A stretch of 64,000 nt of DNA, taken from a virus. A model generated the notes under the pieces. That model did not search any database, had not been told where the DNA came from, and was given only the letters and a program-made list of their open reading frames with translations. The stretch is taken from IMG/VR virus record IMGVR_UViG_3300021256_000064, positions 64,001-128,000 of that record; one strand, given 5' to 3'. Position 1 is the first letter of the stretch. Each line of letters starts with the position of its first letter. The translations under genes were made by a program, and so were the position numbers. Positions 16,001 through 42,182 of this stretch are shown in pieces.

Positions 16001-16059
16001 GTATGGAGTTTGTTGCGGTTTTGGGGATAATGTTATTTGTGTTATGGAGGAATATGTGA

Positions 16060-17703: not shown

Positions 17704-17920
17704 ATTATTTATTTCCTTTCATTCAGAAATTTCACTAATGTCAATATCATAATCAGGAAAGACATCCTCTCTAAACCGAGTTTCAGCTTGCTCATAAGCC
17801 TCATCTATATCATCGGCTTCCACTACTATTGTTATTGTAATTATTGCTTCATAAGTTTTCATTTTAATTTCTACTTCCTTTCATTTGATAAATTAATTAT
17901 AACAGATTAATAATAATTTG

Positions 17921-18124: not shown

Positions 18125-18205
18125 TTTTTTATTTCCTCTCTTTTTTTGATAATATAATTATATAAGATTAATAATAATTTGTCAAGAAAAAAATTAATTT
18201 TCTTC

Positions 18206-18544: not shown

Positions 18545-18777
18545 GTGTTTTTTTCTAATTTTTTAAATTTAGGAAGCATTTTTTCATGCCACCAACTAAG
18601 CAAATCATTTCTCCAATCAGGTTGACAACTAGAAATAAAATCAATCACACCTTGGCAACCGTCTATAAGAGTTTTTATACTTGCGGTTGAATCAACCTTT
18701 TTAAAGATACATGCAGTTTCATATTTTGTTAAAATCCAATTCTGAATACCATCCATTGTAATAGTTTCTGTTTTCAT
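18541..18777 (-). CDS. hypothetical protein (78 aa)
   Basis: ORF track. Confidence 0.45.
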   Translation of the reverse strand: MKTETITMDGIQNWILTKYETACIFKKVDSTASIKTLIDGCQGVIDFISSCQPDWRNDLLSWWHEKMLPKFKKLEKNT

Positions 18778-19031
18778 TGTTTAATTCCTTTCTTTATCTT
18801 ATGTATAAATTATAATAAATTTTAGGAAAAAAGTCAACATGGCATTTTATACAAAAGTGCGGCGAAAAATTTGTTGAATATTACATCTTGACAAATGGCG
18901 GGGCCCGGCGCTTGTCACCGGGCCGAACATTATATCATACCCGCATGAGGTTGTCAATAGGTAATTTTTAACAAAAAAATAGCCAGATTTTCGTCATTTT
19001 AACGAAAATCTGGCTGAAATTGTCAGATTAT

Positions 19032-19424
19032 TTACTTTTTTGGCGGTCTTTTCTTGACTAAATCCAGTTTATAGTGATTTTCACCGACAGAAAACTCAAT
19101 AATTTTTGATTTATTGGTGATTTCCGCATCAAAACCCTCATTTTTCAGACAATTTGCAAGGATTTCGATAATTTTCTCTTTTTCTACATCGGGTTTCCGC
19201 TCACGCTTGACAGACTTTCTAGGTTTGTCTGATTTAGCTTCACGATTTACCTTATTAGCTTTAGCTTTTGCGGTAAGGGCTTCCACTTCCTCATTTTCCA
19301 TATACCCCTCATCCTCAAGGTACATCTGAATGGCTTCTTCTTTTGACAGGTCAAGGAGTTTCATGCTTTTTTCAATTTCAGCATCGGGGATGTTGATAAC
19401 TTTACCATTAAAATCGTATCTCAT
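19032..19424 (-). CDS. basic, Lys-rich protein (130 aa), possibly nucleic-acid binding
   Basis: ORF track. Confidence 0.5.
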   Translation of the reverse strand: MRYDFNGKVINIPDAEIEKSMKLLDLSKEEAIQMYLEDEGYMENEEVEALTAKAKANKVNREAKSDKPRKSVKRERKPDVEKEKIIEILANCLKNEGFDAEITNKSKIIEFSVGENHYKLDLVKKRPPKK

Positions 19425-19535
19425 TTGTCTACCTCATTTCTTTCTTTTGATGATTTAATTATACCGCATCCCCATACTTTTGTCAAGCGTTTTTTAAAAA
19501 ATGGGGGAGATTTTTTTCTCCCCCAAAATTGGCAT

Positions 19536-19886
19536 TTACGCCATAGAGTAATAAGGGGTTTTCTTTACGTAAACCTTTACAAGCTTACCCTCTTTTACAA
19601 GGGCGGACAGCATGTGTGTCACACGCTGGTTTGTAAAGTTTGCAATAGAGGGGACACCGCCCTGAAGCTCGCGGATTGTCTTAGGCTGGTCTACCTCAAT
19701 CAGGTAGGCGACAATATCAGCCTTGCAACTGTCATTCTCAAGCTGAGTTGCGGTAGGCTTACGAGAAGCAGAACGCTTCTTGTCCAGAAGCTTAATCTCA
19801 TTATCAATGAAAGCCACCATATCAGCATTGTCAACAACTACTTCACGGATTGCTACGAACATCTCTCTCTTTGTCATACTAGACAC
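19536..19886 (-). CDS. 117-aa winged-helix-like paralog A
   Basis: about 55-60% identical to 21850..22206 and 24247..24603 (MSSMTKREMF...ITHLLSALVK..GK). Confidence 0.6.
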   Translation of the reverse strand: MSSMTKREMFVAIREVVVDNADMVAFIDNEIKLLDKKRSASRKPTATQLENDSCKADIVAYLIEVDQPKTIRELQGGVPSIANFTNQRVTHMLSALVKEGKLVKVYVKKTPYYSMA

Positions 19887-20071
19887 CTCTTTCTTTTGAA
19901 AAATTGTTATTTGTTGTTTTCTATGTTATTATTATAACAAAGGTTTTTTGTTTTGTCAAGAACTTTTTTATTTTTTTTGAACTTGTCAATCGAACGACCT
20001 AGGACTTGTTCTACCTTATCAAAAAATTTTTTAGTGGTTGACTTCTTTGACTTTCCTTACCTTATGTATTT

Positions 20072-20100
20072 ATTATAACATAGGTTTTTTTATTTGTCAA
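20072..20100 (-). promoter_or_regulatory. archetypal minus-strand early promoter (one of more than 35 copies)
   Basis: RC TTGACA-AATAAAAAAACCTATGT-TATAAT. Confidence 0.6.
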
Positions 20101-20246
20101 GAACTTTTTTTATTTTTTTCTTGACCGCCAAGGCTTTTTCCCTTACCTTGTATAGTAATTATATCAAAAAATTTTTAAAAAGTCAACAATGGAATAATGC
20201 ACTAATTTTGGGATTTTTGCGGATGAAATTTTGTTCAAATTGTCTA

Positions 20247-20378
20247 TTGACAAAAAGTGCTGAGGTGTGGTATAATGGAATTTCAGGCCTAGCCGGAGGC
20301 GTACGGCCCGCCGACTTTAGCGCACTGAAGTGCAAAAGTGTCAAGAGAAAAAATAAAATCCGCATAAGCGGATTTTAT
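20247..20378 (+). ncRNA. plus-strand unit 1: consensus promoter, GC-rich hairpin RNA, shared terminator
   Basis: TTGACA 20247-52, TGgTATAAT 20271-76, GC segment GGCCTAGCCGGAGGCGTACGGCCCGCCG, terminator AAAATCCGCATAAGCGGATTTT. Confidence 0.5.
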
Positions 20379-20385
20379 AAACTGG

Positions 20386-20563
20386 TTTACATAAAGATAA
20401 AATACACGATACAGATAAACGCCAGACGGAAGCAAGAAGTTTGTACAGCCTTACTAAAGAACGGCTCCCACTCGTCATTGTACCACTTAATGTGGCAATC
20501 CGCGATGTGACCAATGAACATAACAATTACAAAAATAATAAACATTGTCATTCTAGTTTCCAT
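20386..20563 (-). CDS. small membrane protein (about 58 aa)
   Basis: GGAGG RBS; hydrophobic. Confidence 0.4.
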
Positions 20564-20566
20564 TTT

Positions 20567-20794
20567 TTAATCCTCCATTACTTCAAAAATATCAAAATTG
20601 GCTACTTTCTCAAATTCTACTTCAACAGAAACTAAATCCAAAATTTCTTCAACTAAATTAGCTTCTCCTTTAGTAAGATTCAAAAATCTAGGTTCTGAAC
20701 AAGGCAAATACAATACATACAATTCTTTTTTCATTTTTTTAATCCTTTCTTCTTTTGATGATATTATTATATCAAAAGGGGACTGTTTTGTCAA
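20567..20794 (-). CDS. acidic small protein (75 aa)
   Basis: ORF track. Confidence 0.45.
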   Translation of the reverse strand: MTKQSPFDIIISSKEERIKKMKKELYVLYLPCSEPRFLNLTKGEANLVEEILDLVSVEVEFEKVANFDIFEVMED

Positions 20795-20812
20795 TCCCCT
20801 TTTTTAATTTTT

Positions 20813-21520
20813 TTACGCCACGCACATTTTAAAATCAGTCTGAGGGATACGCCAAGGCATAGCCAGAATAATTTTATCCATGTGCTTGTGACAAGCGAAA
20901 CATTTAGCAAAAATTTTAGTTTCAATCAGTGCATCCTCAAGGGCGGTGTGCGCTTCCTCAAAAGAAAAATCCCTATTGATGTAGCGGTGGGCAATTTCAG
21001 CGGATGTTTTCACATTCCCGGCATCACTAACCCATGATTCACGGATGGCAAGCTTAAAGAATGTTTTCTGCTTAAGAATTGTCTGACAGCTCATACCCCA
21101 TGAACACCAGATGACAGTCTTTTCATTGAAAAAAGTCTGCTTTTCGTCAAATTTGCTCAGATAGTTAAGGGTTGAATTTAAAGCCCTTGTATCAAAACCA
21201 GCGTTGTAGGCTACTACAGCCTTTACGTTGTATTCTCTCATAAGAGAAAAGATTTCTTTGCGGATTTCCCAAAAAGATTTTACAATCCACTTGCCTGTTT
21301 TAATACCCTCTTTATATGCGGGAATTTTTTCAGCATAGTAGGCGGTTCTCATCTTCTTCCATTCGCCATAAAAGATTTCTCTTACAACGTAGGAACGTGA
21401 TTCATATATATTGCCTTTCTTGTCATGAATGGTGAAACCAATGTCATATACGAGAGGATTACCAAGGTTACCGCAAGTTTCAGTGTCAAGTGTAAGGTAG
21501 TAGTTTTTACGTCTGTCCAT
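20813..21520 (-). CDS. DnaQ-like DEDDh 3'-5' exonuclease
   Basis: LDTETCG (Exo I), NAGFD (Exo II), HTALEDA (Exo III). Confidence 0.75.
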   Translation of the reverse strand: MDRRKNYYLTLDTETCGNLGNPLVYDIGFTIHDKKGNIYESRSYVVREIFYGEWKKMRTAYYAEKIPAYKEGIKTGKWIVKSFWEIRKEIFSLMREYNVKAVVAYNAGFDTRALNSTLNYLSKFDEKQTFFNEKTVIWCSWGMSCQTILKQKTFFKLAIRESWVSDAGNVKTSAEIAHRYINRDFSFEEAHTALEDALIETKIFAKCFACHKHMDKIILAMPWRIPQTDFKMCVA

Positions 21521-21732
21521 TGTTGTTTTCCTTTCCTTTATCTTATGTACTTATTATACATGATTACTTTTAGTTTGTCAAGAGTTTTTTTTTATTTTTT
21601 TTGATTGTTTTTGTGCTTTCCTCTTGACAATTATTATTATACATGAGGGGCGGTAGAAAGTCAATTAAAAGTTATAAAAAAGTTGCACAAATTACAGGAA
21701 AAAAATTTGTGCAACTTTTTTTCAAAAAATGC

Positions 21733-21832
21733 TTGACAAAAATACGCGGGGTGTGGTATAATGGATTTTGCGCGCCAACCCGGGCGTTGGCGCGCTGACA
21801 AAAAAAGACGCCCACTCAGTGGACGCCTTTTG
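21733..21832 (+). ncRNA. plus-strand unit 2: operator IR GTTGCACAAAT...ATTTGTGCAAC, promoter, 10-bp GC hairpin GCGCGCCAAC-CCGGGC-GTTGGCGCGC, terminator
   Basis: TTGACA 21733-38, TATAAT 21757-62; terminator GACGCCCACTCAGTGGACGCCTTTT. Confidence 0.55.
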
Positions 21833-21849
21833 TGTGAGTATTAGGAGCA

Positions 21850-22206
21850 TCACTCCGCCTTGAGAGCGAAGTGAGCAACTTTCTTGACGGTCGTACGCTC
21901 GACCTTGCCATCCTTAACCAGTGCGGACAGAAGATGTGTAATTCTCTGGTTGGTGAGGTCAGCGATAGATTCGCACACCTCACAGAGTTCCCTAATTGTG
22001 ACAGGCTTGTCAACAGTTGCGAGTGCGGAGAGAATATCAGCCTTGAAAGCCTCGTTCTCTACCTGTGTCTTAGTCGGCTTGCGGGTAGCACCGCTCTTAC
22101 GATTAAGAAGGTCGATTTCCTTGTCAATAAAAGCTACCATTTCAGCGTTATCAGCAACAACCTTACGAATTTCTGCGAACATTTCTTTCTTTGTCATACG
22201 AAGCAC
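21850..22206 (-). CDS. 117-aa winged-helix-like paralog B
   Basis: ORF track; paralog of 19536 and 24247. Confidence 0.6.
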   Translation of the reverse strand: MLRMTKKEMFAEIRKVVADNAEMVAFIDKEIDLLNRKSGATRKPTKTQVENEAFKADILSALATVDKPVTIRELCEVCESIADLTNQRITHLLSALVKDGKVERTTVKKVAHFALKAE

Positions 22207-22660
22207 CTCTTTCTTTTGTGTTTTTGTTTTTCTTATGTATTTATTATATTATATTTTTTTTATTTTGTCAATAGTTTTTTTAAGATTTTGAAAAGTTAAA
22301 GTTTCGCTTCCCAGAGCGAGTTGGACTTCAGCCCTGTATCCCACTCCACTTTGTACGATTTAGTCGACTTTACGTACTCGCCTTTATGGCTCATTTTGTG
22401 GGGCTTGCCCTTTCCTCATCTTGTATAATTATTATATCATATATTTAATTGTTTGTCAAGAAGAATTTTCAAAACTTTTTTTTGTTGGGGGAGTGGAGAA
22501 TGGAGCGTGCGCACGTAACTCTTTCTAACCTACTCTCAAGAACTATGTTTCTGTCATCTCCTGACATTGTGTATTATATCAAATACCCATAAGAATTACA
22601 ATAGTCAAAATACACAAAATTATGGGAAAATGTTTGTGCATTTTGCTGAGAAAGTTTTAC

Positions 22661-22755
22661 TTGACAAAAAATGCGGCGGTATGATATACTGGAATTTCGG
22701 CGCGAACCGGAGGCTCGCGCCCCGCCCAAAAGCAGGATTTAATAACCCTGCTCTT
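22661..22755 (+). ncRNA. plus-strand unit 3 (promoter TTGACA...TATACT, hairpin GGCGCGA-ACCGGAGGC-TCGCGCC)
   Basis: seen directly; terminator hairpin overlaps stop of 22739..23002. Confidence 0.45.
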
Positions 22756-23002
22756 CTGCTTCAAGATATTCCTCTTTTGAAATTTCTTCAACGTAAGCTT
22801 GAACATGCATTTCATATATTTCAATTTCATCCCAATTATCCATATCTTCGACAAACCGCTCATCAGGATAAGCAAAAGAGTATTCATCACAACAAATCTC
22901 GTCTGCTTCAGCCCAGGCTTCACTTTCAGATTCTGCTTGAATGTAAAAATGTTCATCACAACCACAATAGCCATTTGTGCAAGTTATTTTGTAATATTTC
23001 AT
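22739..23002 (-). CDS. highly acidic Cys-containing small protein (87 aa), DNA-mimic-like composition
   Basis: ORF track. Confidence 0.45.
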   Translation of the reverse strand: MKYYKITCTNGYCGCDEHFYIQAESESEAWAEADEICCDEYSFAYPDERFVEDMDNWDEIEIYEMHVQAYVEEISKEEYLEAEEQGY

Positions 23003-23143
23003 TTTAATACCTCACTTCCAACTAATGTAAAGTTTATAAAAACAAAACTCATGGTGATAATCACAATTTTCATTGTAATTATAACCCCAATAGGGGTCGT
23101 TCCAACGGTTCCAACCAATTTTAATTTTCATTTTTGTCTCCTT

Positions 23144-23371
23144 TCAATCTTCTTCTACAAGTTCCCCAAACAGCTCACATACTTCACGCCATTCACCATC
23201 ATTACTTGCAATAAATTCAAAGATTTCATCATCAGGTTCATCGGGGACGCCATCTCTAATCCAAATATCATAAACAAAGTCATCCCCCATATCAATGATG
23301 TAGTTATGCATACCTTTAAGAAGTTCAATTCTTCTTTCAATCTCACTCTGTTTCGTACTCTTAATTGTCAT
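23144..23371 (-). CDS. acidic small protein (75 aa)
   Basis: ORF track. Confidence 0.45.
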   Translation of the reverse strand: MTIKSTKQSEIERRIELLKGMHNYIIDMGDDFVYDIWIRDGVPDEPDDEIFEFIASNDGEWREVCELFGELVEED

Positions 23372-23608
23372 TTTTTTTATTTCCTTTCTTCTTTTGATGT
23401 TATTAGTATATCATAAGGAATTAGAGTTGTCAACCCCTTATTTTTTCATTTAGGCGGCTGTCGGGATGCGCTGCATCCTTTTTATCCGACATTTAATCAT
23501 CTTCGTCCGGTGACGCTCCGCAGATTTGCGGGTCTTCCGACTTGCATCCAGTGGAACCGCTTATGTTATTAGTATATCATAAGGGGTTGGAGTTGTCAAT
23601 CCCTTATT

Positions 23609-23800
23609 TTATCTTTCTCTAAAGAAATAATCAGTGAGTTCACTTTCATCTTTTTCGCTATAAGGACACATATAAGTTTCACGAGCTTCAGGTGGAAAAT
23701 ATTGAGGGTCATTGTGGTCTGCCCTAAGATAACAATATTTTTCAGGTGTCATTTCTACAACTTTTTCTACTCGCATTATATAAGAGATTTTAACTTTCAT
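23609..23800 (-). CDS. hypothetical protein (63 aa)
   Basis: ORF track. Confidence 0.4.
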   Translation of the reverse strand: MKVKISYIMRVEKVVEMTPEKYCYLRADHNDPQYFPPEARETYMCPYSEKDESELTDYFFRER

Positions 23801-24018
23801 TTGGTGTGTTCCTTTCTTTATCTTATGTATAAATTATAATAAATTTTAGGAAAAATGTCAAGTTGTAATTTTGCACAAAATACAAATCAAAAATTTGTAT
23901 AGTATCACATATTGACAAAACGCATCCCGCGGCGGTCCGTTGCGGGATGCCAAAAGGGGACTGCCTTCTACGACAGCCCCCACACCAAAAGAAAGGAAAA
24001 CAAATATTAGATTCTGAG

Positions 24019-24092
24019 TGAGGGTGAGGGGACTTGAACCCCCGACACCTAGATTAAAAGTCTAGTGCTCTAGCCAACTGAGCTACACCCTC
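24019..24092 (-). tRNA. tRNA-Lys(UUU) embedded in early region
   Basis: acceptor GAGGGTG/CACCCTC, D-arm GCTC-AGTTGGCTAGA-GCAC, anticodon stem CTAGA/TCTAG, loop CTTTTAA, T-loop TTCAAGT. Confidence 0.7.
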
Positions 24093-24246
24093 AAAATGGG
24101 CGGGCTTATATTGCAAGGCGCTCCGCCAGCCTTAGGACTATTCTACTTAGTTCGTTCTTTTAGGCAACTCGGCTTGAATTATCCCATATATAGAAAGCCT
24201 TTTCCTTTAATGCGGTTTTTAAGGATGACCGCAAACCCTTATGGAG

Positions 24247-24603
24247 TTAAGCGTAGGAGAAGTAAGCAACCTTCTTCACCTGTGTTCTGACTACTTTGCC
24301 ATCCTTAATGAGGGCTGTCAGAAGGTGTGTGATTCTCTGGTTCGTCAGCTCTGCAATAGAGGGGCAAACCGCACACAGTTCCTTGATTGTTACAGGCTTG
24401 TCAACCTCAATAAGAGAAGCAATAATGTCAGCCTTGAAGCCATCATTCTCAACCTGTGTCTTTGTGGGCTTGCGAGAAGCGGATTTCTTCTTATCCAGAA
24501 GCTTAATTTCGTTCTGGATGAAAGCTACCATGTCCTCATTCTCAGCTACTGCGGAAACCTTAAGCATTTCATTGTACATTTCTCTCTTCGTCATACTAGA
24601 CAC
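24247..24603 (-). CDS. 117-aa winged-helix-like paralog C
   Basis: ORF track. Confidence 0.6.
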   Translation of the reverse strand: MSSMTKREMYNEMLKVSAVAENEDMVAFIQNEIKLLDKKKSASRKPTKTQVENDGFKADIIASLIEVDKPVTIKELCAVCPSIAELTNQRITHLLTALIKDGKVVRTQVKKVAYFSYA

Positions 24604-24639
24604 CTCTTTCTTTTTTTATGTTTTGTTTTTTCTTTATCT

Positions 24640-25200
24640 TATGTATTTATTATAACTTATTTTTTTTATTTTGTCAAGAGTTTTTTTTATTTTTTTTATT
24701 TTGTTTTCGTGGGTTTGGCGCCTTATACCACGTGGCTGATAGCATTTTTGTTAGCCCCTTACATCCACCCTAACATGGGGCTTAAATCCTAACTCCCATA
24801 CACTTAATGTCCTTTTCTTTGCTTAACTTCTGTATTTATTATATCATATCTTTTTTAATTTGTCAATCACTTTTTTTATTTTTTTTCGGCGGGTCTCTCA
24901 TAAGATTGGCTCCTCTCCTGACTTTACTTACTTCCAACTTGAAAGTATGTCATCAACTTTTTTCGTATTTTTTAAAGTTTTTTCGGCGGGTCTCTCATAA
25001 GAATCAATCCTTTCTTTATCTTATGTATTTATTATACCATAAGATTTTTTATTTGTCAATAGTTTTTTTAAGATTTTTTGAAGTGACTTTCTTTTGTTCA
25101 GATAACCGATAGGCGCGAGGCTCTACCAATCACCCTACTTAATGTTGTTGTCCTTCCTTTATCTTGATATAATTATATCAAAAGTTTTTTAAAAAGTCAA
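24640..25200 (-). promoter_or_regulatory. four consecutive promoter modules without ORFs, separated by GC-richer filler; repeated motif CGGCGGGTCTCTCATAAGA (x2 here, x1 at 30331)
   Basis: TATTATA...TTGTCAA modules at about 24650-24700, 24835-24880, 25025-25070, 25160-25200. Confidence 0.45.
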
Positions 25201-25260
25201 CAACGGAATAATGCACTATTTTTGGGATATTTTTTTGTGCAACTTTTTTTCAAATTTCAC

Positions 25261-25364
25261 TTGACAAAATGTGCGGGACATGGTATAATGGTGATTTCGC
25301 GCCAGGCCGATGGCTGGCGCGCCGCTAATCTTTAAATAAAAAAAGAGGGTGTAAAACCCTCTTA
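25261..25364 (+). ncRNA. plus-strand unit 4 (hairpin GCGCCAG-GCCGATGG-CTGGCGC)
   Basis: TTGACA 25261-66, TGgTATAAT 25284-89. Confidence 0.5.
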
Positions 25365-25583
25365 ATTGCCCATTCTCAATTCTCGATTCAGTTCTCTTAC
25401 AATCCTTTTAGTCTCATCAAGACCGATTGTATTAATGGCTTCATTAATTTTGGAGAGGATTTCACGCTTACACTCATAACGTCTCTGCTCCTGTGCTTTC
25501 TTTTCTCTAATTTCCATTAAATATTTGTGGAGTGCTTCGCGTTCGTCTGCTGTAATAAGGTATCCCATGAATTCGTTTTTCAT
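25362..25583 (-). CDS. hypothetical protein (73 aa)
   Basis: ORF track. Confidence 0.45.
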   Translation of the reverse strand: MKNEFMGYLITADEREALHKYLMEIREKKAQEQRRYECKREILSKINEAINTIGLDETKRIVRELNRELRMGN

Positions 25584-25638
25584 TTTTTTATTTCCTTTCT
25601 TTTTGATGATTTAATTATACTACAGAAATTATTATCTG

Positions 25639-26094
25639 TCAAGACTTTTGTGTAAAAATAATTTCTGTACCAGTATAGAAAGAGCGAGTACTTATGACTT
25701 CTTTTTTAAACCCTTCTAATTCAAATTTATCATTGAGATATTCCTCAATTTTCCAATGGAATTTACTCCAAAAAAGGCGGTCTTTTATTTTTAAATATTT
25801 TTTTGCAAAACCTATAGTCCATCCTATCCCGTTGTCATAAAAGAAAAAGGTTTTATCATCAGGGTTCCAATCACTTATCTGAGGGATGTAATAAGTAAGA
25901 ATCTCATCGGCTCTTTTTTCATCCCAAGTTGTGCGCTCATAATTCCAATTTTTGATTCGGTCGCTAATTTCAACACAAATCCAAATAGGGAAGAGGATGA
26001 TTCTCATTACTTTATAATCATTTTTGTGCCACCAATCGCGGATGAGGTGCTTTTTCTGTTTATCTTCAATAGCTTTTAAGATTTCTTTATTCAT
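25639..26094 (-). CDS. hypothetical protein (151 aa)
   Basis: ORF track. Confidence 0.55.
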   Translation of the reverse strand: MNKEILKAIEDKQKKHLIRDWWHKNDYKVMRIILFPIWICVEISDRIKNWNYERTTWDEKRADEILTYYIPQISDWNPDDKTFFFYDNGIGWTIGFAKKYLKIKDRLFWSKFHWKIEEYLNDKFELEGFKKEVISTRSFYTGTEIIFTQKS

Positions 26095-26159
26095 TTTTTT
26101 ATTTCCTTTCTTTCTTTTGATATATTAATTATACTATGAAAAACTAAAATTGTCAATAG

Positions 26160-26399
26160 TTATTTTATTTTTTCAATAATTAACCAACCGCAATTAATAC
26201 GAGCTGAATCATTAACCCTTTCAATAATAGATGTTCCCCATCCATTAGCTTTTGAAAAAATCATTTGCTTTGCGGAGTCATAAGAGTTAAAAGCATGTGG
26301 ATATTCACCAAATTTAGTTGAAAGGTCATTCTCATCACAAAAGGCTATTACATATTGAGGGGTATTTATTTCTTTTTCTTTAGAAAATATAAAAAACAT
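26160..26399 (-). CDS. hypothetical protein (79 aa)
   Basis: ORF track. Confidence 0.45.
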   Translation of the reverse strand: MFFIFSKEKEINTPQYVIAFCDENDLSTKFGEYPHAFNSYDSAKQMIFSKANGWGTSIIERVNDSARINCGWLIIEKIK

Positions 26400-26465
26400 T
26401 ATTTAGCTCCTTTTCTTTTGATACACTAATTATACAGCATTCTTTTTGGAATGTCAAGGGGATTT

Positions 26466-26909
26466 TTACATCCCCTTGAGAATTTCAATAATTGAGTGGA
26501 CATCGAAAGCCTTGCCTGTCCAGTTTTCTCTGTTCTTAGATTCATCATCGAACAGAATATCATTAGTTGTGTTAGCGAACGTCTGTTTAGGAGTGCCATA
26601 AGGAACAATGTTAATTTCATCGAATTTTACACTTGCCAGATGCTTATTAAGCCATGCCATTTTAGCTTCCGTTACTTTTGTATCGTATGATGCGGTGGAT
26701 GTTTTAGAAAGCCAAGAGATAACGCCGATTCTGTAGCCCTGTTTCTGAAGTCTATTCAAAATGCGGGCAAGTGAATTGAGGTTGACAAGTGGCTTTGCAT
26801 TAGCGTACGGGAACGGGTCATATGCTCTAAGAAGGGGAAGCCAATTGGGGACACTGTAAAGGTCTGCGATTGTACCGTCCATATCAAAGTAGATTGTAGT
26901 AGCTGTCAT
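26466..26909 (-). CDS. HAD-superfamily phosphatase (5'-nucleotidase-like)
   Basis: FDMDGTIAD DxDGT motif near N-terminus; GAGGAG RBS. Confidence 0.65.
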   Translation of the reverse strand: MTATTIYFDMDGTIADLYSVPNWLPLLRAYDPFPYANAKPLVNLNSLARILNRLQKQGYRIGVISWLSKTSTASYDTKVTEAKMAWLNKHLASVKFDEINIVPYGTPKQTFANTTNDILFDDESKNRENWTGKAFDVHSIIEILKGM

Positions 26910-27036
26910 GTTTCTGTTCTCCTCTCTCTTGATGATACTATTATAGCATGGGGGCATTGGGGTGTCAACTATTTTCAATAAAAAAGTTGCACAAATTATG
27001 GGATAAAAATTTGTATTTTTTTGTGCAAAATTTCGC

Positions 27037-27134
27037 TTGACAAAATGGTGCGGCATGTGGTATAATGGTTGAACGGGCTGCGCCCGGCCGCCCCCGCGGC
27101 GACGAAAAAATAGAGGTAATTACCCCTATTTTTT
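27037..27134 (+). ncRNA. plus-strand unit 5
   Basis: TTGACA 27037-42, TATAAT 27061-66, GC tract GGGCTGCGCCCGGCCGCCCCCGCGGCG, terminator AGAGGTAATTACCCCT+T6. Confidence 0.5.
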
Positions 27135-27405
27135 AAATATGATAAAGTTTTCCGTCAAGGACGTAGATGACACCCTCAGAACCATCATACTCGTCAATCT
27201 CCCAATCAGTAGCTTCATCCGGAATATCTACAATAGCAAGTCGGGCACAATGACCATTTGCGGCTTTCCCTAAAGTGTTAACTACCTCGATTAGACGAGG
27301 GTCTGTTCGAGAGATTAGAGGATAACGAGTTTTAAACCCAAGCATCTGCAAAGCTTCATCTGAAAGACCAAAACCGCCAAAACAAGTATTAATGCAAATC
27401 TTCAT
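27133..27405 (-). CDS. hypothetical protein (90 aa)
   Basis: ORF track. Confidence 0.5.
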   Translation of the reverse strand: MKICINTCFGGFGLSDEALQMLGFKTRYPLISRTDPRLIEVVNTLGKAANGHCARLAIVDIPDEATDWEIDEYDGSEGVIYVLDGKLYHI

Positions 27406-27438
27406 TTTTTATTTCCTCTCTTTTCTTTATCTTATGTA

Positions 27439-27624
27439 TTAATTATAGCCTGCTTCTTTCATTTTGTCAAGCATTTTTTGAGAAGTTTTTAAATATTTAT
27501 ATTTTCTATTTTCTTCACACCAGGGGCAACCGCCATGATTTCTGCATCTTTTAGAAATTGCTTTTCCGCCAGAATAGGGGCGCCGATGTTCTTTTCCACT
27601 TGTGATTGATTTCATTAAAGACAT
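27439..27624 (-). CDS. small basic zinc-ribbon protein (61 aa)
   Basis: ORF track; CRNHGGCPWC. Confidence 0.45.
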   Translation of the reverse strand: MSLMKSITSGKEHRRPYSGGKAISKRCRNHGGCPWCEENRKYKYLKTSQKMLDKMKEAGYN

Positions 27625-28163
27625 TTTTATTTACCCCCTTTTTAATTTTCCTTAAGGTTTTTATAAAGTTCCGCCAGTTGCTCATACAGAACTCCAATTT
27701 CATAATCCAATTTAATTCTTTTTGCAAAACTCCGGCACTTATTATAAGCACGTCTTTTATCTTTAAGCTGTTTCTCTATCTCATCAATCTGAATTCTTGT
27801 CATTGTTTTAACTTCCTTTCTCTTGATGATATAATTATACTATAGGGGTTGAGATTTGTCAACCCCTATTTTAATTTTTTAATTCGGGAAGGCTTCCATC
27901 ATAGCCTTGTACTCATCAGGTGTCTTTGCCAGTCTATCAACAATACGCCACCAAAGATCCATTCGGTCAGAAATATTGGACTTATGACCAACCAGATATT
28001 CAAAATTTTCGATTGTTTTGTTGTAGATTGCGATTGCTTCTTCCATGTCTGTGTTCTCCTCTCTCTTGATGATACTAGTATAGCATAGCCTACATAAGAA
28101 GTCAAGTAAAATATTGCACAAATTTGGGAATTTTTTCAGCTAATTTTTTGTGCAAATTGCCAA

Positions 28164-28257
28164 TTGACAAAAGTTGGAAGGTATGCTATAATGGTTCGGC
28201 GGGCAGGCCCCGGCTGCCCGCGCGCCACTCAAAAAAGAGGGCTTAAGCCCCCTTTCT
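28164..28257 (+). ncRNA. plus-strand unit 6 (hairpin GCGGGCAG-GCCCCGG-CTGCCCGC)
   Basis: TTGACA 28164-69, TATAAT 28187-92, terminator AGAGGGCTTAAGCCCCCTTTCT. Confidence 0.5.
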
Positions 28258-28434
28258 GGCTCTCTCACGTCTCTTCTTTTCAGCTTTCAGTGCGTGCTCC
28301 CGCATCTGAAGCTTCACATTTTCTGGAGTTTCGTCTACAGGAAGCAGGTGAACCGCCTTAATACCCTCAGCCTTAGCAGTTGCAAAATTCTCAGTTACCT
28401 TACCGCCCTTTGTCTCGTATCTAACTGTTCTCAT
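28243..28434 (-). CDS. hypothetical basic protein (63 aa)
   Basis: ORF track. Confidence 0.45.
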   Translation of the reverse strand: MRTVRYETKGGKVTENFATAKAEGIKAVHLLPVDETPENVKLQMREHALKAEKKRRERARKGA

Positions 28435-28503
28435 TCTAATTTCTCCTTTTCTTTTGTTATCTTATATATAAATTATACTATTTTTCTTTTAAGTTGTCAA
28501 CAA

Positions 28504-28692
28504 TTATTTTTCATTTTCAAAAGGAACGTTTAAAGCTACAACCATAGCCAGTGTTACGATTTCATCAGAAACTGCTTTGTTTTCCGCCAGATTGCAAAAC
28601 CAAATTGTAGTTTCGTCCTCTAATCCTCTAAAAGTTGCGACCTTATTTTCCATTTCCATTCTAGACATAATTAATCCTCCATTTTGATCCAT
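28504..28692 (-). CDS. hypothetical protein (62 aa)
   Basis: ORF track. Confidence 0.4.
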   Translation of the reverse strand: MDQNGGLIMSRMEMENKVATFRGLEDETTIWFCNLAENKAVSDEIVTLAMVVALNVPFENEK

Positions 28693-28734
28693 ATATGAGG
28701 GGTTCGGTTCGTTTACCGAACCCCTAACCAGTTA

Positions 28735-28920
28735 TCAGATTCTAGCAAGAATCTTTGACATGATTTCATTGTGTGCGTTAAGAGCATCCATATACAGGCT
28801 ATCAGCTCTGCACCATGCTTCGAAGTTGTTTGCCCTTGTAGCTCTGACCAGTTCGGCATATGCACGATTAAGTTCTGTTCTAAGTTCCTGTTCCTTTGCT
28901 CTCATTTCTGTAAGTGTCAT
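28735..28920 (-). CDS. hypothetical protein (61 aa)
   Basis: ORF track; similar to 32146..32328 (MT..EMRAKE..L...AY.L..A). Confidence 0.45.
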   Translation of the reverse strand: MTLTEMRAKEQELRTELNRAYAELVRATRANNFEAWCRADSLYMDALNAHNEIMSKILARI

Positions 28921-29178
28921 TTTTGTTTTCCTCTCTTTCTTTATCTTATGTACTTATTATACATGATGTTTTTTATTTTGTCAAGGGGTTTTTTATTTTT
29001 TTTCAAGTTTCCAGATTGGATTTTTTGTTGTATCCCGTGTGCCGTCGGCATTGAAGAACCAAATTGCGCGATAATTATCCATTGAAATAATTACCATATT
29101 GCCAAACTCTTTTATTTGATAGCCACGGCTTCTATGAATACGAATGAATTTGTCTTTTGTCATTTTTTTGTTCTCCTT

Positions 29179-29361
29179 TCAAAAACCAATGTAGTGGTCA
29201 AACTGTCCGTCAATCCGACATTCAATGTACCAATCTTCTTCAGAACACATATCTTCTTCTAAAAGACAGCCAAAAGCGTGAGCATTTTCGTAAGAAGTAA
29301 ATGTATCTTCTTTAAAATGATGTCCCATACAATCAATCACCCACACCACATATTCAAACAT
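29179..29361 (-). CDS. acidic Cys/His small protein (60 aa)
   Basis: ORF track. Confidence 0.4.
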   Translation of the reverse strand: MFEYVVWVIDCMGHHFKEDTFTSYENAHAFGCLLEEDMCSEEDWYIECRIDGQFDHYIGF

Positions 29362-29449
29362 TTTTTTGTTCTCCTCTCTTGTTTCTGATATAATGATACT
29401 ACTTTTTTAGTCACTTGTCAAAGGATTTTTTTAATTTTTATGCGGTTTA

Positions 29450-29732
29450 GCATTTTGCACAAAAAGGCTTTAAAAAGTTTGTGCAATTTGCTATTTTTAT
29501 TTTTAGCTATTGACAAAAAATTTTTTGTGCAAACTGCACAATAACAGAGTGCTTCACTTGTGTAGTTTGCACAACTCCAGAAAAGTCAAGTAGAAATGTT
29601 GCACAAAAATGGGGCAGTTTTGGGCGTTCTTTTTGTGCAATTTGACGAGAAGCACATCTGCACCGATCTGTCAATGGGCAAATTGCACAAATTTGGGAAA
29701 AAATTGCGCTTAATCTTTGTGTAATTTGCCTA
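29450..29732. promoter_or_regulatory. dense array (8 or more) of TTGCACAAA / TTTGTGCAA operator half-sites upstream of unit 7 promoter
   Basis: seen directly. Confidence 0.6.
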
Positions 29733-29815
29733 TTGACAAAACCGCGAGGGTATGGTATAATGGTTGAACGGGCAAAGCCCGTGCGCCCACGGCGCGCCGA
29801 GCAAGAGCCGGAGCT
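29733..29815 (+). ncRNA. plus-strand unit 7 (hairpins ACGGGC-AAA-GCCCGT and GCGCC-CAC-GGCGC)
   Basis: TTGACA 29733-38, TGgTATAAT 29756-61. Confidence 0.45.
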
Positions 29816-30009
29816 TAGGAGAAGAATCTATTCCAAGCTTCCCACTCCTCAGTCCAGAGGTCCTCGATGTCTGTCCAATCGAGGTTCTCATCTCCGCTCA
29901 GCATAGCCGAACGAGCAAAGGCTGTAGCTTCCATAGCCTTGCGGTACTGCTCTACCTTGCGGTTTGTGAGGGTTGCTGTGATGCCGTCTGCGATAATGAT
30001 TGTTGTCAT
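29815..30009 (-). CDS. acidic small protein (64 aa)
   Basis: ORF track. Confidence 0.45.
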   Translation of the reverse strand: MTTIIIADGITATLTNRKVEQYRKAMEATAFARSAMLSGDENLDWTDIEDLWTEEWEAWNRFFS

Positions 30010-30094
30010 TTTTTTATCTCCTCTCTCTTGATGATTTTATTATATCAGATGGGATTGTTTTTGTCAACTACTTTTTTTTATTTTTTTTAGCGGA

Positions 30095-30180
30095 GCGAGT
30101 GGGAGTTGAACCCAAGAGAACTACTTGCTAGCATTTTCGTTCCCAGACGTCACCGTCTACCTACTTCCGTTCGGCTTACC
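30095..30180 (-). ncRNA. promoter-driven tRNA-like RNA (T-loop GGGTTCAACTCCC) occupying the slot where a module normally carries a CDS
   Basis: promoter 30185-30235 has ATCATCGGAAGG in place of RBS; transcript lacks ORF. Confidence 0.35.
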
Positions 30181-30418
30181 CTTCCGATGATTTTATTATA
30201 TCAAAGACTTTTTAGTTTGTCAACTACTTTTTTTATTTTTTGGTGAGGGATGGGAACTTGTCCGCTCACCGTGCCTGTATTCATCGCGCCCTAATGTCCC
30301 CAGGCTCTGGCGCATTTCTTTGGTTTGTTGGTTTTTACGGCGGGTCTCTCATTTCTGTGTTCCTCTCTTTTGATGATTTTATTATATCAGGTGGGGTTGA
30401 TTTTGTCAACCCCTTTTT

Positions 30419-30565
30419 TCAATTTTTTTCTTCTATTGTCATGTACTCTTCATAACCGAGGTTATCCCAAGCAGTATCTACATATTCGCAAGCCTCTTCA
30501 TAAGAATCGAATACTTCATCTACACTCCAGTTTCCACAGCAATCCATGAACCATACTTCGTACAT
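30419..30565 (-). CDS. acidic Cys-containing small protein (about 48 aa)
   Basis: internal ATG of ORF 30419..30622. Confidence 0.35.
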   Translation of the reverse strand: MYEVWFMDCCGNWSVDEVFDSYEEACEYVDTAWDNLGYEEYMTIEEKN

Positions 30566-30734
30566 TTTTGTTCTCCTCTCTCTTGATGATTCTATTATAT
30601 CAGATAGGTTGAAGTTTGTCAACCTTTTATTTTTATTTTTTAGAAGTTTTTGATATGAGTGGGAGATTTTCGACTTAGTTTAAAACTTACTCGCCTCGTC
30701 TGGGTGAACTTGCTTTAAAACACCCTTCGAAGTA

Positions 30735-30790
30735 AAGGAAGGAATCGAACCTTGTGTTGCTGTCAGCCTTTCTGACTGCCTTTACCTTAT
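30735..30790 (-). ncRNA. mini tRNA-like RNA at +1 of a promoter module: acceptor-like, D-arm-like and T-arm (AAGG-TTCGATT-CCTT) but no anticodon arm
   Basis: RC GGTAAAGGCAGTCAGAAAGGCTGACAGCAACACAAGGTTCGATTCCTTCCTTTACT. Confidence 0.3.
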
Positions 30791-31494
30791 GTTTTTATTA
30801 TACCAGAGGGGTTGAGGTTTGTCAACCCCTCTTTTTCATTTTTTTAATTTTCTTTGAGAAGCTCTTCAGCGATTTCCTCGGCTTCCGCCTCGGTGATTTC
30901 GTTGTATGCTACCATTCTGACCAGTTCTTCGAACATCATGTACTTCATTTTGCGTTCCTCGCTTTCTTTATCTTATGTACTTATTATATCAGATGTTTTG
31001 TAGTTTGTCAACTACTTTTTTTATTTTTTTGAAGCTTTCTACATTTCAGATGAACAACCGGCGCTTGGCTCGTCCGCCCACCCTATTCTGTTTTGTTGCT
31101 TCCTTTCTTTTGATGATTTAATTATATCATGGGGCTTGGCTTTTGTCAAGCCCCTTTTTTAATTTTTTTAAAAGATTTTTACGACTTTTCTGTCATCGTT
31201 ATCGTTATCTGTTGTGATAACCGCTGTTGTAGCATCTACATCTACAATACCATCCCAACCGCCATCCATAGCTGTCTGAACCGGAATGTTAAGTGCGTTA
31301 TTTGCTACTGCCCAGTTATAAAGATCCATGATTGTCATTTTTTTTACTTCCTTTCGTTTGTGTTTTTGTTTTCCTTTGATGATATAAGTATACCATCCTA
31401 GGTTTCTGTTGTCAATAGTTTTTTAAAAATCATATCAAAAATATTGCACAAAAATAGGAATTTATTTTTGTACATTTTGACGAATAAATTAGTC

Positions 31495-31606
31495 TTGACA
31501 AACTGCGTTGTAGTGTGGTATAATTTTCACGGCCTCCAGCCGTTCGTTTGTGGTTGCTAATCTTATTAGTTAATAAAAAGATAAGAGCGTTTCCGCTCTT
31601 ATCTTA
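31495..31606 (+). ncRNA. plus-strand unit 8 (hairpin ACGGC-CTCCA-GCCGT; terminator AGATAAGAGCG-TTTC-CGCTCTTATCT)
   Basis: TTGACA 31495-500, TGgTATAAT 31519-24. Confidence 0.5.
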
Positions 31607-31904
31607 CCTCGTTATATTTATTTCTTGTGTGTTCTTTTGCCAGTGCTAAAAGGTCTGTCGGGATTGTTTCATTTTCGTTGTAGTATCTTCTAATCTGTCC
31701 TGGTCTAGCGATTAATCTAGTTACCATTTTCTTTGTTCTTTCATTGTAGATTGTAATGATTGCTGTTGAGCTAATCACGTGGATTTCAGCACCGTTGCGA
31801 TGTCCTCTGTCTACTCTAACTTCCTTTACTGGTGTTCCTTCACCGATCTGCTGAATAAGTTCTTCTCTTGCTTTTCTATCTTTTGTGTAATGCTTGCTTG
31901 TCAT
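31599..31904 (-). CDS. hypothetical protein (101 aa)
   Basis: ORF track. Confidence 0.5.
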   Translation of the reverse strand: MTSKHYTKDRKAREELIQQIGEGTPVKEVRVDRGHRNGAEIHVISSTAIITIYNERTKKMVTRLIARPGQIRRYYNENETIPTDLLALAKEHTRNKYNEVR

Positions 31905-32044
31905 GTCTTTGTTCTCCTTTGCTTTTGTTTTCTTTTGATGATACTATTATAACGCTTACTTTATTAGTTGTCAATAGGTTTTCAACAAAAATATTGCACA
32001 ATTTTAGGTGATTTATTTTGTTACTTTTGACGAATAACTTAGTC

Positions 32045-32140
32045 TTGACAAACTGCATCGTTGTGTGGTATGCTGTTTCGGTGTCCGAACGACTGTTCAC
32101 GTTAGCAAATAAGTAAAAGCCTAACTTTCGTTAGGCTTTT
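32045..32140 (+). ncRNA. plus-strand unit 9 (promoter near-identical to unit 8, -10 TATGCT; terminator AAAAGCCTAAC-TTTCG-TTAGGCTTTT)
   Basis: seen directly. Confidence 0.45.
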
Positions 32141-32145
32141 ATTCT

Positions 32146-32328
32146 TTATACTCTATCGAGCAGTTCGCTTGTGGCGTCCAGCCATTCACGAGAAGCTTTC
32201 ATGTAGTTATCGTTTGCTAACATCCATGTTTCTGCATCAGCTGTTTTTGCTTCGATAAGCTGATTAAATGCGTAATCCATGTTTGCCTTAAGTTCCTTGC
32301 ATCTCATTTCCATAGCCTTTACTGTCAT
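32146..32328 (-). CDS. hypothetical protein (60 aa)
   Basis: ORF track. Confidence 0.45.
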   Translation of the reverse strand: MTVKAMEMRCKELKANMDYAFNQLIEAKTADAETWMLANDNYMKASREWLDATSELLDRV

Positions 32329-32439
32329 TGTTTTGTTCTCCTTTTCTTTTGTTTGAGGTTTCTTTCCTCATCTCTTGAATACATTATACTGCTAAGTAGT
32401 TCACTTGTCAATACTTTTTTATAAAAAATATTATCTTTT

Positions 32440-32940
32440 TATTGGTTAGTAGTGCCTACCTACTACCATGCTGTACTACATACATGTATTAACATATTAA
32501 TGTGTTAATGTATTAATGTTGTATTGTGTTAATGTGTTAATGTTGTATCACTTCACATCGTTACACTTCAACGTGGTGAAGTGATGCAGCTCAGCACTTC
32601 AACGTGGTGAAGCGTCACAGTGATACCACTTTAACGCGCTGAAGTGGCAATGCTTTAACGCGGTGAAGTGATAGCGCTTTAACGTACTAAAGTTTCATAC
32701 TTTAACGCGGTGAAGTGGCACCGTGGTGACGCGCGAAAAACAGCCATAAGTAAGACTTTAGCGAGGTGAAGTGTTAACGCGCTGACGCTTTAACGCGGTG
32801 AAGTGGTGACGCTGTGAAGCGCTGAAATCGCCCCTAAAATGGGACTTTAGCGCGGTGAAGTGTGACGCTTTAACGCGCTAAAATTTAACGCTTTAGCGTG
32901 GTGAAGTGCAAAAACGGCTCTCAACCAACCCGTTTCGAGC
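32440..32940. repeat. iteron array: about 11 degenerate copies of ACTTYAACGCGGTGAAGTG (partly palindromic ACTTCA-N6-TGAAGT) at irregular 20-45 bp spacing, preceded by GTTAATGT mini-repeats
   Basis: seen directly; noncoding 950-bp gap between gene blocks. Confidence 0.75.
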
Positions 32941-33060
32941 CGCGCGCAATACGAAGATTATTATAATTACTAATCAAGAATTTTCCATAAATTAAGAATT
33001 GATTTTTTGAAAATATTATTTTTATTATTTTATTTTTTATTATTTTATTTTTATGGCAGG
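32941..33060. repeat. AT-rich tract with TATTTTATT repeats (DNA-unwinding-element-like) adjoining the iterons
   Basis: seen directly. Confidence 0.6.
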
Positions 33061-33297
33061 TATGAGTGTTTTATGTATTTTTTGGGGCGTATCAATCTAC
33101 AGACGTACTCGTCAGATTTGTTCAGCTACAGACACTTCCTTAATAATTATCTGGGGGGGTATATTTCGGGAGAAAAATTTTTTAAAAATGTGAAAAGGGT
33201 ATTGTCTCCACACAACTCTCTCCAAATTAATTTTCAAAATTAAAAAACGATTTAAATCCCACTTCCCTCTCCAAACCAAAAATGGAGGGATGATTTA

Positions 33298-33654
33298 TCA
33301 TCCCTCCATTTCCTTTGCCTCATAAATATTTGGATACCAACTAAAAAATGGTTTCCTACTTCCGCCAACTTTTATCCTATAAGTTTTTCCAACTTCAATT
33401 TTCCCATATAAATCAGAAGAATTAAATCTTCCATAAAGCCAACTATCAGTAATCTCATAAGTGGTATCAGTAGAATAAACTAAATATTTATCATCTTTAA
33501 CCATTTTATCAGTAACTTCAATAGTTTCATATCTTATATTTGTAGCTTTATCAATAGGTCTCCAAAAACTAACTACAATAAGAAACCCTATAATAAGGAT
33601 ATAAAAAATAAATGCAATAACTTTTACATTAGAACCTTCATCATAATAACCCAT
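33298..33654 (-). CDS. membrane protein (118 aa, N-terminal TM helix)
   Basis: ORF track. Confidence 0.5.
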   Translation of the reverse strand: MGYYDEGSNVKVIAFIFYILIIGFLIVVSFWRPIDKATNIRYETIEVTDKMVKDDKYLVYSTDTTYEITDSWLYGRFNSSDLYGKIEVGKTYRIKVGGSRKPFFSWYPNIYEAKEMEG

Positions 33655-40640: not shown

Positions 40641-42182
40641 ATGATTGGAACTGAAGATTACCAAATTCCCAATTAGGCTACTGGATATACACCAGTTGAT
40701 TTTGCAAAAATTCGAGTTGGAGTAAAAAATGTATCTGATGTTATTTTAAAACTTGGAGATTTAAGAAGAGTCAATCCGCAACTAGCAGATAAAGGACAAG
40801 TATTAAGAGCTATCCATTATGGTGATCTTAATAAGATGAGAGATATTTCTAATTATTTTTATAAAATTAGTGGTATTTATCAAAGATTATGTCGTTATAT
40901 GGCATATATGTATAGATATGATTGGCTTGTTACCCCTTATTATGCTTAGTCTGTCAAGCCTACAAAGATACTTGATGGTTTTAATAAAGTTTTAACATAC
41001 TTAGATAAATTTGAGGCTAAAAGATTTTTTGGAGACGTTGCTTTAAAAGTTATTAAAAATGGTTGCTATTATGGATATTTAATTGCTAAAAATGGAACTG
41101 TGGTAGTTCAAGAACTACCTCCGAGATATTGTAGATCTAGATATGTAGTTTCTAATGGGCAGCCGCTTGTTTAGTTTAATATGAAATACTTTGATGATAT
41201 GTTTACAGATGCGTAGCAACGTCTTAGAATGTTAAAAGTATTTCCGCCAGAATTTGAAAAAGGATATAAGTTGTATAAACAAGGAAAATTAAAGCCTGAT
41301 TTTCCTGGAGATGATTCTGGATGGTACTTATTGACTGTTGGTTCTGTTATAAAATTTAATTTAAATGGGGAAGATTTCCCGCCTTTTATTGCAGTTATTC
41401 CAGCTATTATTGATTTAGATGCAGCGCAAGATCTCGATCGTAGAAAGATGCAACAACAATTATTAAAAATTATTATTCAGAAAATGCCTATTGATAAAAA
41501 TGGAGATTTAGTGTTTGATGTAGACGAAGCTCAACAACTTCATAATAATGCAGTGCAAATGTTATCAAAAGCTATTGGTATTGATGTTTTAACTACTTTT
41601 GCGGAAGTTGATGTTGCGGATATGGCAGATAATCATACTACAACAACAACAGATGATTTAGAAAAAGTAGAGCGTACTGTTTATAATGAAGCAGGTGTTT
41701 CACAGATGCAATTTAATACTGATGGTAATATTGCTCTTGATAGATCTATTTTAAATGATGAAGCTTCAATGTGGAATTTAATACAGCAATTTGAAACATT
41801 TTTAAATGCTTTATTAACACCTTTCAATACAAGTCCAAAAAAAGTAACTTACAGAGCGCAAATTCTTCCTACTACGATTTACAATTATAAAGATTTAGCT
41901 AAACAATATAAAGAGCATACTCAATTAGGTTATTCTAAAATGTTACCTCAGATTGCTCTTGGGCAATCACAAAGCGCAATTTTAGCAACAGCTTATTTTG
42001 AAAATGATATTCTTGATTTAGTTAATGTCTTTATTCCACCATTAATGTCGAGCACTATGAACGCAGAAGTTCTTAATCGCAATAAGACTACTGGCGAGAC
42101 AAAATAGGGTGCGGGTAGGCCTGAGAAAGAAGATAGTGAGAAATCAACTAAAACAATTCAGAATCGTGAAAGTATGAATTAA
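40641..42182 (+). CDS. portal protein (by position and size, about 513 aa)
   Basis: ATG 40641 in frame with ORF 41229..42107; continues through TAG to TAA 42180. Confidence 0.55.

Follow-up and report, generated by a model that had tools for sequence, protein, structure and literature searches.

A conserved palindrome array heads the promoter-dense early region of a phage related to phAss-1

As DNA elements, arrays of dyad sites are familiar. In phage T5, repeat region 3, a 1.2-kb untranslated region with repeats and palindromes, closes the pre-early gene block (bioRxiv 10.1101/866236). Here we describe a palindrome array at positions 32549-32908 of a 64,000-nucleotide stretch of viral DNA (positions 64,001 to 128,000 of the IMG/VR record IMGVR_UViG_3300021256_000064; hereafter the window, to which all coordinates refer). 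The nearest named relative of this virus is phAss-1 (OQ749652), whose portal protein is 43% identical. phAss-1, a gut phage assembled from metagenomes, belongs to the 'code 15' clade, whose members read TAG as glutamine, and its hosts are predicted to be Clostridia (PMC10607447); that paper makes no mention of repeats or regulatory DNA. The array of the window lies in a gap without genes, exactly at the upstream edge of an early region dense in promoters. Its sites are conserved in related phages and recur there at similar positions relative to promoters. With moderate confidence we propose that they form an operator or architectural array for a dimeric DNA-binding protein of the phage.

Palindromic sites and their conservation in related phages

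The repeat unit of the array is a 20-bp dyad, CACTTYAMYG-CRKTRAAGTG, composed of two inverted 10-bp half-sites. A search with CTTTAACGCGGTGAAGTG, allowing up to three mismatches, gave nine matches between 32566 and 32908, all in the plus strand reading, where 0.02 would be expected by chance in the whole window; the one further match in the window lies outside the array, at 20315. Scanning with the half-sites revealed 11 sites with at least 16 of 20 matching positions (starts at 32564, 32595, 32627, 32651, 32675, 32698, 32754, 32786, 32843, 32866 and 32889), and weaker copies start at 32549 and 32881. A preliminary description of this DNA had counted about 11 degenerate palindromes, which is confirmed by the 11-12 copies found here, far above chance. 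It had given ACTTCA-N6-TGAAGT as their unit; this palindrome is present, but the unit extends beyond it to the full dyad. Start-to-start spacing within the array is 23-57 bp, with gaps of 3-37 bp between sites, in rough agreement with the irregular 20-45 bp reported before. The spacing is quantised, with a mode at 23-24 bp and a next class at 31-34 bp. Among 58 neighbour pairs of the sites pooled with those of relatives, 19 are spaced by 23 bp, five by 24 bp and 11 by 31-34 bp. Eight sites of one relative (L003) follow each other at exactly 23 bp.

A motif scan of public viral contigs, of contigs from bacterial genomes and of metagenomes led to about 30 related contigs of gut phages from the TAG-recoded phAss-1 group, and in all of them the motif lies between early promoters. 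The closest relative is a 139.8-kb contig (L007/L009), which contains the gap in matching order with about 75% identity. Aligned with L009, the sites of the window are 80% identical, the spacers between them 55% and the remaining parts of the gap 59%. The array varies hardly at all among near-identical strains. Within their sites, the substitutions read off are three C/T changes at position 6 and two G/A changes at position 2, both of which are degenerate positions. Pooling 86 sites gave the half-site C-R-C-T-T-Y-A-N-Y-G, with C3, T4, T5 and A7 nearly invariant. Because the sites are better conserved than their spacers and the strain substitutions read off in them fall at degenerate positions, the sites themselves are under selection; they are conserved and occur far above chance.

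Similarity searches beyond these contigs returned little. A megablast search of 31.5-34.5 kb against phage records found nothing, a distant blastn search detected only a 28-nt identity, to phAss-1, and a full-text literature search for the motif sequence retrieved nothing relevant. A host chromosomal regulon was considered and dropped, as no sign of one was seen: the 30 matches to the 20-mer in a scan of a genome collection correspond roughly to the estimated chance level plus phage contigs binned into metagenome-assembled genomes (MAGs). The exact 20-mer palindrome is also present on four contigs (L028, L035, L037 and L038) of one such MAG, WY2.bin112, which is labelled Deltaproteobacteria and has 56-60% GC; these copies are probably an unrelated dispersed repeat of that genome. 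Apparent likenesses of the motif to CIRCE, parS, Rex and cre sites and to the MotA box were set aside, some of them for a different spacing or order.

Each site could fold as a 7-bp hairpin, and the composition of the sites bears on whether they are read as DNA or as RNA. There are two flavours of half-site, CACTTTAAYG and CACTTCACCG, and single arrays combine them in all four ways and in both orientations. Across the 86 sites, stem position 6/15 shows 37 Watson-Crick pairs vs 49 mispairs and position 2/19 shows 49 vs 37; the stem positions that are always paired consist of invariant bases, and there is no covariation. Half-sites are furthermore found as 8-bp direct repeats, which are unable to form hairpins. 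Since all half-site combinations occur, pairing is not kept at the variable positions and half-sites are also repeated directly, the sites behave, as judged by their sequence, as DNA half-sites that are each read independently, as by a dimeric protein, and not as RNA stems.

The number of arrays per early region varies among the relatives, with four in L068, at least six in L080, three in L149, two in L132 and four to five small clusters in L006. Other relatives, phAss-1 included, display scattered single sites only, between early genes. Three tandem modules were seen in L068 at 1669-5525, each opening with an array of 5-8 sites, after which come small genes. The first genes of the three modules (about 72 aa) are mutually homologous and their second genes are alike in size; modules of array plus genes thus appear to duplicate as units. 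The first gene downstream of the arrays does not belong to a single conserved family, and therefore the arrays are not those of a ParR- or omega-like autoregulated operon.

The position of the sites relative to promoters recurs across the clade. For forward promoters with a 17-nt spacer, the nearest site starts 67-76 bp upstream of the -35 element in seven cases, drawn from five phages; in two further cases the distance is 47 bp. In five of the six clusters of L080 and in L149/L153, L039 and L041, an antisense promoter with an 18-nt spacer stands back to back with the forward one and fires into the sites. In at least six phages the sites begin about +10 to +45 from the start of such an antisense promoter, which is a classical operator position. 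The solitary site of the window (20313-20332) shares this setting. It belongs to a mini transcription unit on the plus strand (20247-20380) composed of an 18-spacer promoter, a GC-rich hairpin, the site and a terminator; the site starts at about +28 from the predicted transcription start, and promoter and terminator bound a unit of 95 nt.

The conserved partners of the arrays are a promoter and, on the side facing away from it, a GC-rich hairpin; the AT-rich tract next to the array of the window is not one of them. A GC-rich 25-mer flanks most large arrays, and several of the hairpins are trailed by a T-run along the direction of early transcription. GC-rich hairpins of unrelated sequence are located at the position equivalent to that of the window's hairpin in L009 (-32.1 kcal/mol), L003, L004 and L018.

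Layout of the gene-free gap and the early region

The gap extends over about 970 bp, between the start of a gene for a 60-aa protein (32146-32328, minus strand, with a strong ribosome-binding site) and the end of a gene for a 118-aa protein (33298-33654, minus strand), which is the end of the neighbouring leftward operon (33.3-35.8 kb). Gene calling found no gene inside the gap in any of the eight independent assemblies that span it, in line with the noncoding interval of about 950 bp described previously. A relative of the 118-aa protein is encoded on a 165-kb contig (L008), where synteny is absent.

On the left side of the gap lies the first, most upstream early promoter, TTGACA-17-TATAAT (32383-32411, minus strand), which matches the consensus at 12 of 12 positions, drives the 60-aa gene and the genes beyond it, and is conserved in L009. 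A possible antisense promoter, TTGTCA-18-TATTAT (32405-32434, plus strand, 10 of 12 positions), stands back to back with it and points into the array; it is not conserved in L009, which makes its function doubtful. Between promoter and array, at 32484-32548, are six 8-bp repeats TTAATGTR (TTAATGTG; period 8, 5.9 copies), which are conserved in L009/L007. In appearance they are degenerate, AT-rich half-sites placed in direct register, and analogous 8-bp half-site runs, YRCTTTAA, are present in L003. The mini-repeats reported ahead of the array are accordingly found in place, with about six copies at a period of 8; the exact 8-mer GTTAATGT itself is not enriched in the window (six found vs 3.5 expected).

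On the side of the array facing away from the promoter, a terminator-like GC-rich hairpin is followed by TTTTT on the minus strand (32907-32948, -19.6 kcal/mol). An AT-rich tract with TTATTTTTATTATT repeats comes next (32950-33062); it is 113 bp long with 14% GC and contains a 57-bp core with 7% GC. A run of more than 100 bp of A/T after the array had been noted before and does exist, but it does not follow the array directly, as the hairpin lies between them. The adjoining block of about 210 bp (33063-33277) contains GGGGGGGTATATTTCGGGA and two TTTGGAGAG repeats and is about 75% identical to L009. The two sequences differ in this block by 2-nt indels, and it is therefore not coding; no Rfam match was found for it. 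In strains L047 and L052 the stretch of about 33150-33280 is swapped for a diverged allele while the rest of the gap is near-identical across strains, and in scaffolds L048 and L049 about 33105-33270 is an N-gap. The gap closes with the intrinsic terminator of the upstream leftward operon that ends in the 118-aa gene (33278-33313, minus strand; -23.7 kcal/mol, z = -4.6, followed by a U-run).

The region headed by the array, at 17261-32411 (minus strand), resembles a host-takeover region. A scan for TTGACA-17/18-TATAAT with at least 11 of 12 consensus positions identified 49 promoters in it, about one per 300 bp: 40 on the minus strand, nearly all with a 17-nt spacer, and nine on the plus strand, six of them with an 18-nt spacer. 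Only eight such promoters were found in the remaining 49 kb of the window, and the 2.7 kb next to the array on its upstream side contain no consensus promoter. Comparable promoter densities were seen in L009, L010 (phAss-1), L043, L068 and L137. The genes of the early region are tiny; among them is a gene similar to 5' deoxyribonucleotidases of the HAD/NT5C type (26466-27056), with homologues in L002, L003, L004 and L006.

The mini transcription unit with the solitary site belongs to a family, with members at 20247, 21733, 22661, 25261, 27037, 28164, 29733 and 31495 on the plus strand and at 17261-17290 on the minus strand. They consist of a conserved promoter, cTTGACAAAA..TGgTATAATGG, mostly with an 18-nt spacer, and, directly after it, a very GC-rich hairpin of non-conserved sequence. 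In most of the plus strand units an A-run follows, and then a bidirectional terminator in common with the convergent early gene; the predicted RNAs are about 60-95 nt long. A second operator-like motif of the early region is the inverted repeat TTGCACAAA-N14-24-TTTGTGCAA. Pairs were found at 21683/21706, 26987/27020, 28114/28147, 29455/29478, 29599/29632 and 29683/29716, and singles at 22974, 23871, 25234, 29524 and 31444; the sole exact copy beyond the early region is at 52354. For five of the six pairs, the end of the pair is 10-30 bp upstream of a plus strand mini-unit promoter. The second motif also lies between palindromes and promoters in L003, L005, L010, L012 and L018.

The window also carries 11 tRNA genes, including a suppressor tRNA with a CTA anticodon at 1180-1253, and a gene for a phage sigma factor. 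Its structural genes (36000-64000) are broken by in-frame stops, as in the portal gene at 41229-42107. Together, suppressor tRNA and broken structural genes fit a recoding of TAG to glutamine. Between leftward-transcribed regions, 13200-16600 displays a strongly positive GC skew (+0.28 to +0.41) and no open reading frame (ORF) of at least 150 aa; it probably contains rightward genes interrupted by recoded stops. A 126-bp tandem repeat (48269-48564; 2.3 copies, 78% match) lies inside an ORF rich in Thr, Gly and Ser (48182-48754).

Possible functions of the array

In the reading that we favour, the array serves as a docking place for protein. A sequence-specific dimer, probably encoded by the phage, would occupy each 20-bp site, and about 12 dimers at a 23-bp period would build a nucleoprotein complex over about 360 bp. 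This complex would sit between the GC hairpin, which is terminator-like, and the most upstream of the roughly 40 consensus early promoters that point leftward, where it would control or insulate early transcription. It might keep read-through from the upstream leftward operon (33.3-35.8 kb) out of the early genes, act as an operator that represses the antisense 18-spacer promoters, or set the activity of the adjacent forward promoter. We infer protein binding at the sites from their DNA-level features, and both the identity of the binder and the sign of its effect on transcription are proposed here in the same conditional sense.

Candidates for the binder are three early winged-helix paralogs of about 117 aa, encoded at 19536-19886, 21850-22206 (minus strand) and 24247-24603; their family has a distant member at 6820-7224. 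The family has 744 unannotated metagenomic homologues, and homologues co-occur with the motif in at least 12 loci. A confident AlphaFold2 model of one paralog (pLDDT 88) finds its best fold matches in the PDB among dimeric repressors of the ArsR/SmtB/MarR type, and a (T/S)xQ(R/K) motif is conserved in the recognition helix of the paralogs. From these features we infer that the ArsR/MarR-like proteins may bind the sites. A gene for a 130-aa protein (19032-19424) adjoins the winged-helix gene in the window and also in L001. Neither a ParB/KorB nor a ribbon-helix-helix protein was identified, and among the genes flanking the array Pfam and PHROGs searches recognised no family for DNA binding, replication or partition.

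Several observations weigh against an operator or architectural array and against this binder. The phage of the window has one large array and one solitary site, so that the argument from multiple arrays comes from the relatives and may not transfer to it. Twelve sites far exceed the needs of a simple operator. The antisense promoter that faces the array is weak and not conserved in L009, as described above. The distances between sites and promoters are clustered, not fixed (47, 67-76 and 91-172 bp). The winged-helix proteins are connected with the sites by co-occurrence and fold; the 8-bp half-site period fits a ribbon-helix-helix protein better than a winged helix, and the winged-helix protein might just as well recognise the TTGCACAAA inverted repeat.

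The preliminary description had read the locus as a candidate iteron-type origin of replication. At such an origin an initiator dimer would bind the iterons and bend the DNA, and the neighbouring AT tract would melt, perhaps aided by negative supercoiling in the wake of the strongly transcribed early region, much as transcription helps the lambda origin. The anatomy on which this was based stands, with clustered dyad sites at a 23-bp period beside a 113-bp tract of 14% GC, a palindrome nearby, an intergenic position and strong promoters adjacent. The layout of the lambda origin resembles such an array with its AT tract, and the winged helix is a common fold of initiators. Few of the relatives' arrays of at least three sites, however, have a comparably AT-rich 100-bp stretch within 300 bp; the lowest GC fraction of a 100-bp stretch on the distal side is 0.09 at the array of the window vs 0.15-0.45 elsewhere. 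A very AT-rich tract is missing beside most arrays of the relatives, and the tract of the window is itself one of ten equally AT-rich tracts in the 64 kb. To either side of the array the GC skew stays negative, without a change of sign, and the nearest minimum of the cumulative skew is found about 3 kb away, at 35.8-36.0 kb, where the transcribed strand switches. Pfam and PHROGs searches of the 66 ORFs between 2.5 and 35.8 kb recognised no initiator, no helicase loader, and no ParA/ParB or other partition gene. DnaA boxes with up to one mismatch are absent from 32.3-33.3 kb, and no DnaA-box cluster was found. The most telling result against an origin is the copy number in the relatives, which hold 2-6 arrays within a few kb and, in addition, single sites beside individual promoters; with multiple arrays and scattered sites of this kind, a unique origin, packaging (pac) site, centromere or entry stop is not to be expected. 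Skew, gene search and relatives thus do not favour the origin function, which we consider unlikely. A partition site, which had been named as an alternative, is no better supported. The array would then be a parS-, parC- or tubC-like centromere that is bound by an adaptor and segregates a plasmid-like prophage. Closely spaced arrays of dyads or direct repeats upstream of an operon do resemble the centromeres of types Ib, II and III, and the half-site TTTAGCG-CGCTAAA resembles the KorB operator, TTTAGCSGCTAAA. On the other side, no ParA, ParM, TubZ or ParB-like gene was found among the 66 ORFs, the relatives carry many arrays per genome, and the genome, which has a host-takeover region, a sigma factor of its own and tRNAs, looks virulent, so that a centromere seems hardly credible.

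As a genome-end element, the array would mark the inner boundary of a terminal, possibly terminally repeated, early region and act as a stop or anchor during injection or as a recognition site for terminase. Its geometry is like that of T5's first-step-transfer region, as strong sigma-70 early promoters are directed away from an untranslated repeat region of 1 kb, and the early genes include one similar to 5' deoxyribonucleotidases. An indirect point comes from phAss-1, whose circular assembly was cut by its authors where PhageTerm placed a terminus, of unreported type (PMC10607447). The position of this cut falls within the early region, at a distance of about 1 kb from the upstream-boundary site, which is found at record position 1048 beside lysis genes; as evidence for a genome end it is suggestive but thin. 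It is the one observation on the side of the packaging site that had also been put forward before, and which likewise gains no better support than the origin. Against a genome end, contigs do not end consistently at the array, DnaA boxes are lacking, and the several arrays and sites inside the early regions of relatives misfit a single stop or cut signal. The terminase genes are several kb away across an operon on the opposite strand, the packaging module beginning beyond 36 kb on the other strand. Searching the literature on the distant cultured relatives for terminal repeats yielded nothing of use. Overall, we regard a genome-end element as quite improbable. Transcribed in antisense, the array could also give rise to an RNA of about 12 hairpins that serves as a sponge or decoy for an RNA-binding protein of host or phage, such as a factor in defence or decay. 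The solitary site at 20313 inside its 95-nt promoter-to-terminator unit and the strong 18-spacer promoters that fire into arrays in L080, L149, L039 and L041 are in keeping with this, as are the wobble-type (G-U) mispairs, which are more common on the antisense than on the gene strand (106 vs 65). It is opposed by the loss of pairing at variable positions and the absent covariation, by the asymmetric half-site pair that occurs in both orientations within one array, by the 8-bp direct half-site repeats that cannot fold, and by the weak facing promoter, which L009 does not conserve. An Rfam scan of 17-36 kb at E-values up to 1 gave only a tRNA and noise. An RNA sponge is therefore very unlikely in our view.

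Comparison with known systems

The TAG-recoded phages of the phAss-1 type occur widely in the guts of humans and animals; none has been cultured, and we found one paper dedicated to them. A conserved cis-element with a precise consensus and a setting in the early region offers a handle on how early infection is programmed in these phages. Correcting the origin annotation also matters, since the site is unsuited for orienting genomes or for inferring replication. The array would gain greatly in interest if it were a genome-entry stop or a sponge RNA. Within the literature searched here, the family of elements, its consensus, its spread over multiple arrays, its pairing with a GC-rich hairpin and an antisense promoter and its position heading the early region are undescribed.

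With the iteron origins of lambda (lambda O) and of the plasmids P1, F and RK2, the array shares dyad sites of about 19-20 bp, a period of about 23 bp, and an AT tract and palindrome nearby. In contrast to these origins, it has no initiator gene at or near it and no skew switch, its motif is tied to promoters and present in multiple copies in relatives, and its AT tract is not conserved. The injection-stop region of T5 (repeat region 3, in the left terminal repeat) is alike in being an untranslated block of about 1 kb, with palindromes and direct repeats, at the head of small early genes, and likewise in the very strong sigma-70 promoters and the dmp-like nucleotidase gene of the early region; it differs in that the locus of the window shows no sequence similarity to it and no DnaA boxes, and that relatives carry several arrays. 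The KorB OB sites of RK2, the omega heptads of pSM19035 and the metboxes of MetJ resemble the sites described here in that short palindromic or directly repeated sites are both arrayed and scattered, at distances that vary among the many promoters of a regulon. The 8-bp tandem half-sites recall metboxes and the half-site resembles the KorB operator, whereas arrays of up to 14-16 dyads exceed the operators typical of these sets. To our knowledge, no comparable palindrome array has been described for SPO1. Likeness to its host-takeover module concerns the region next to the array and not the array itself: in both, the Firmicutes-type phage places dense tiny genes behind strong consensus host promoters, with about 12 early promoters in SPO1 vs 49 in 15 kb here.

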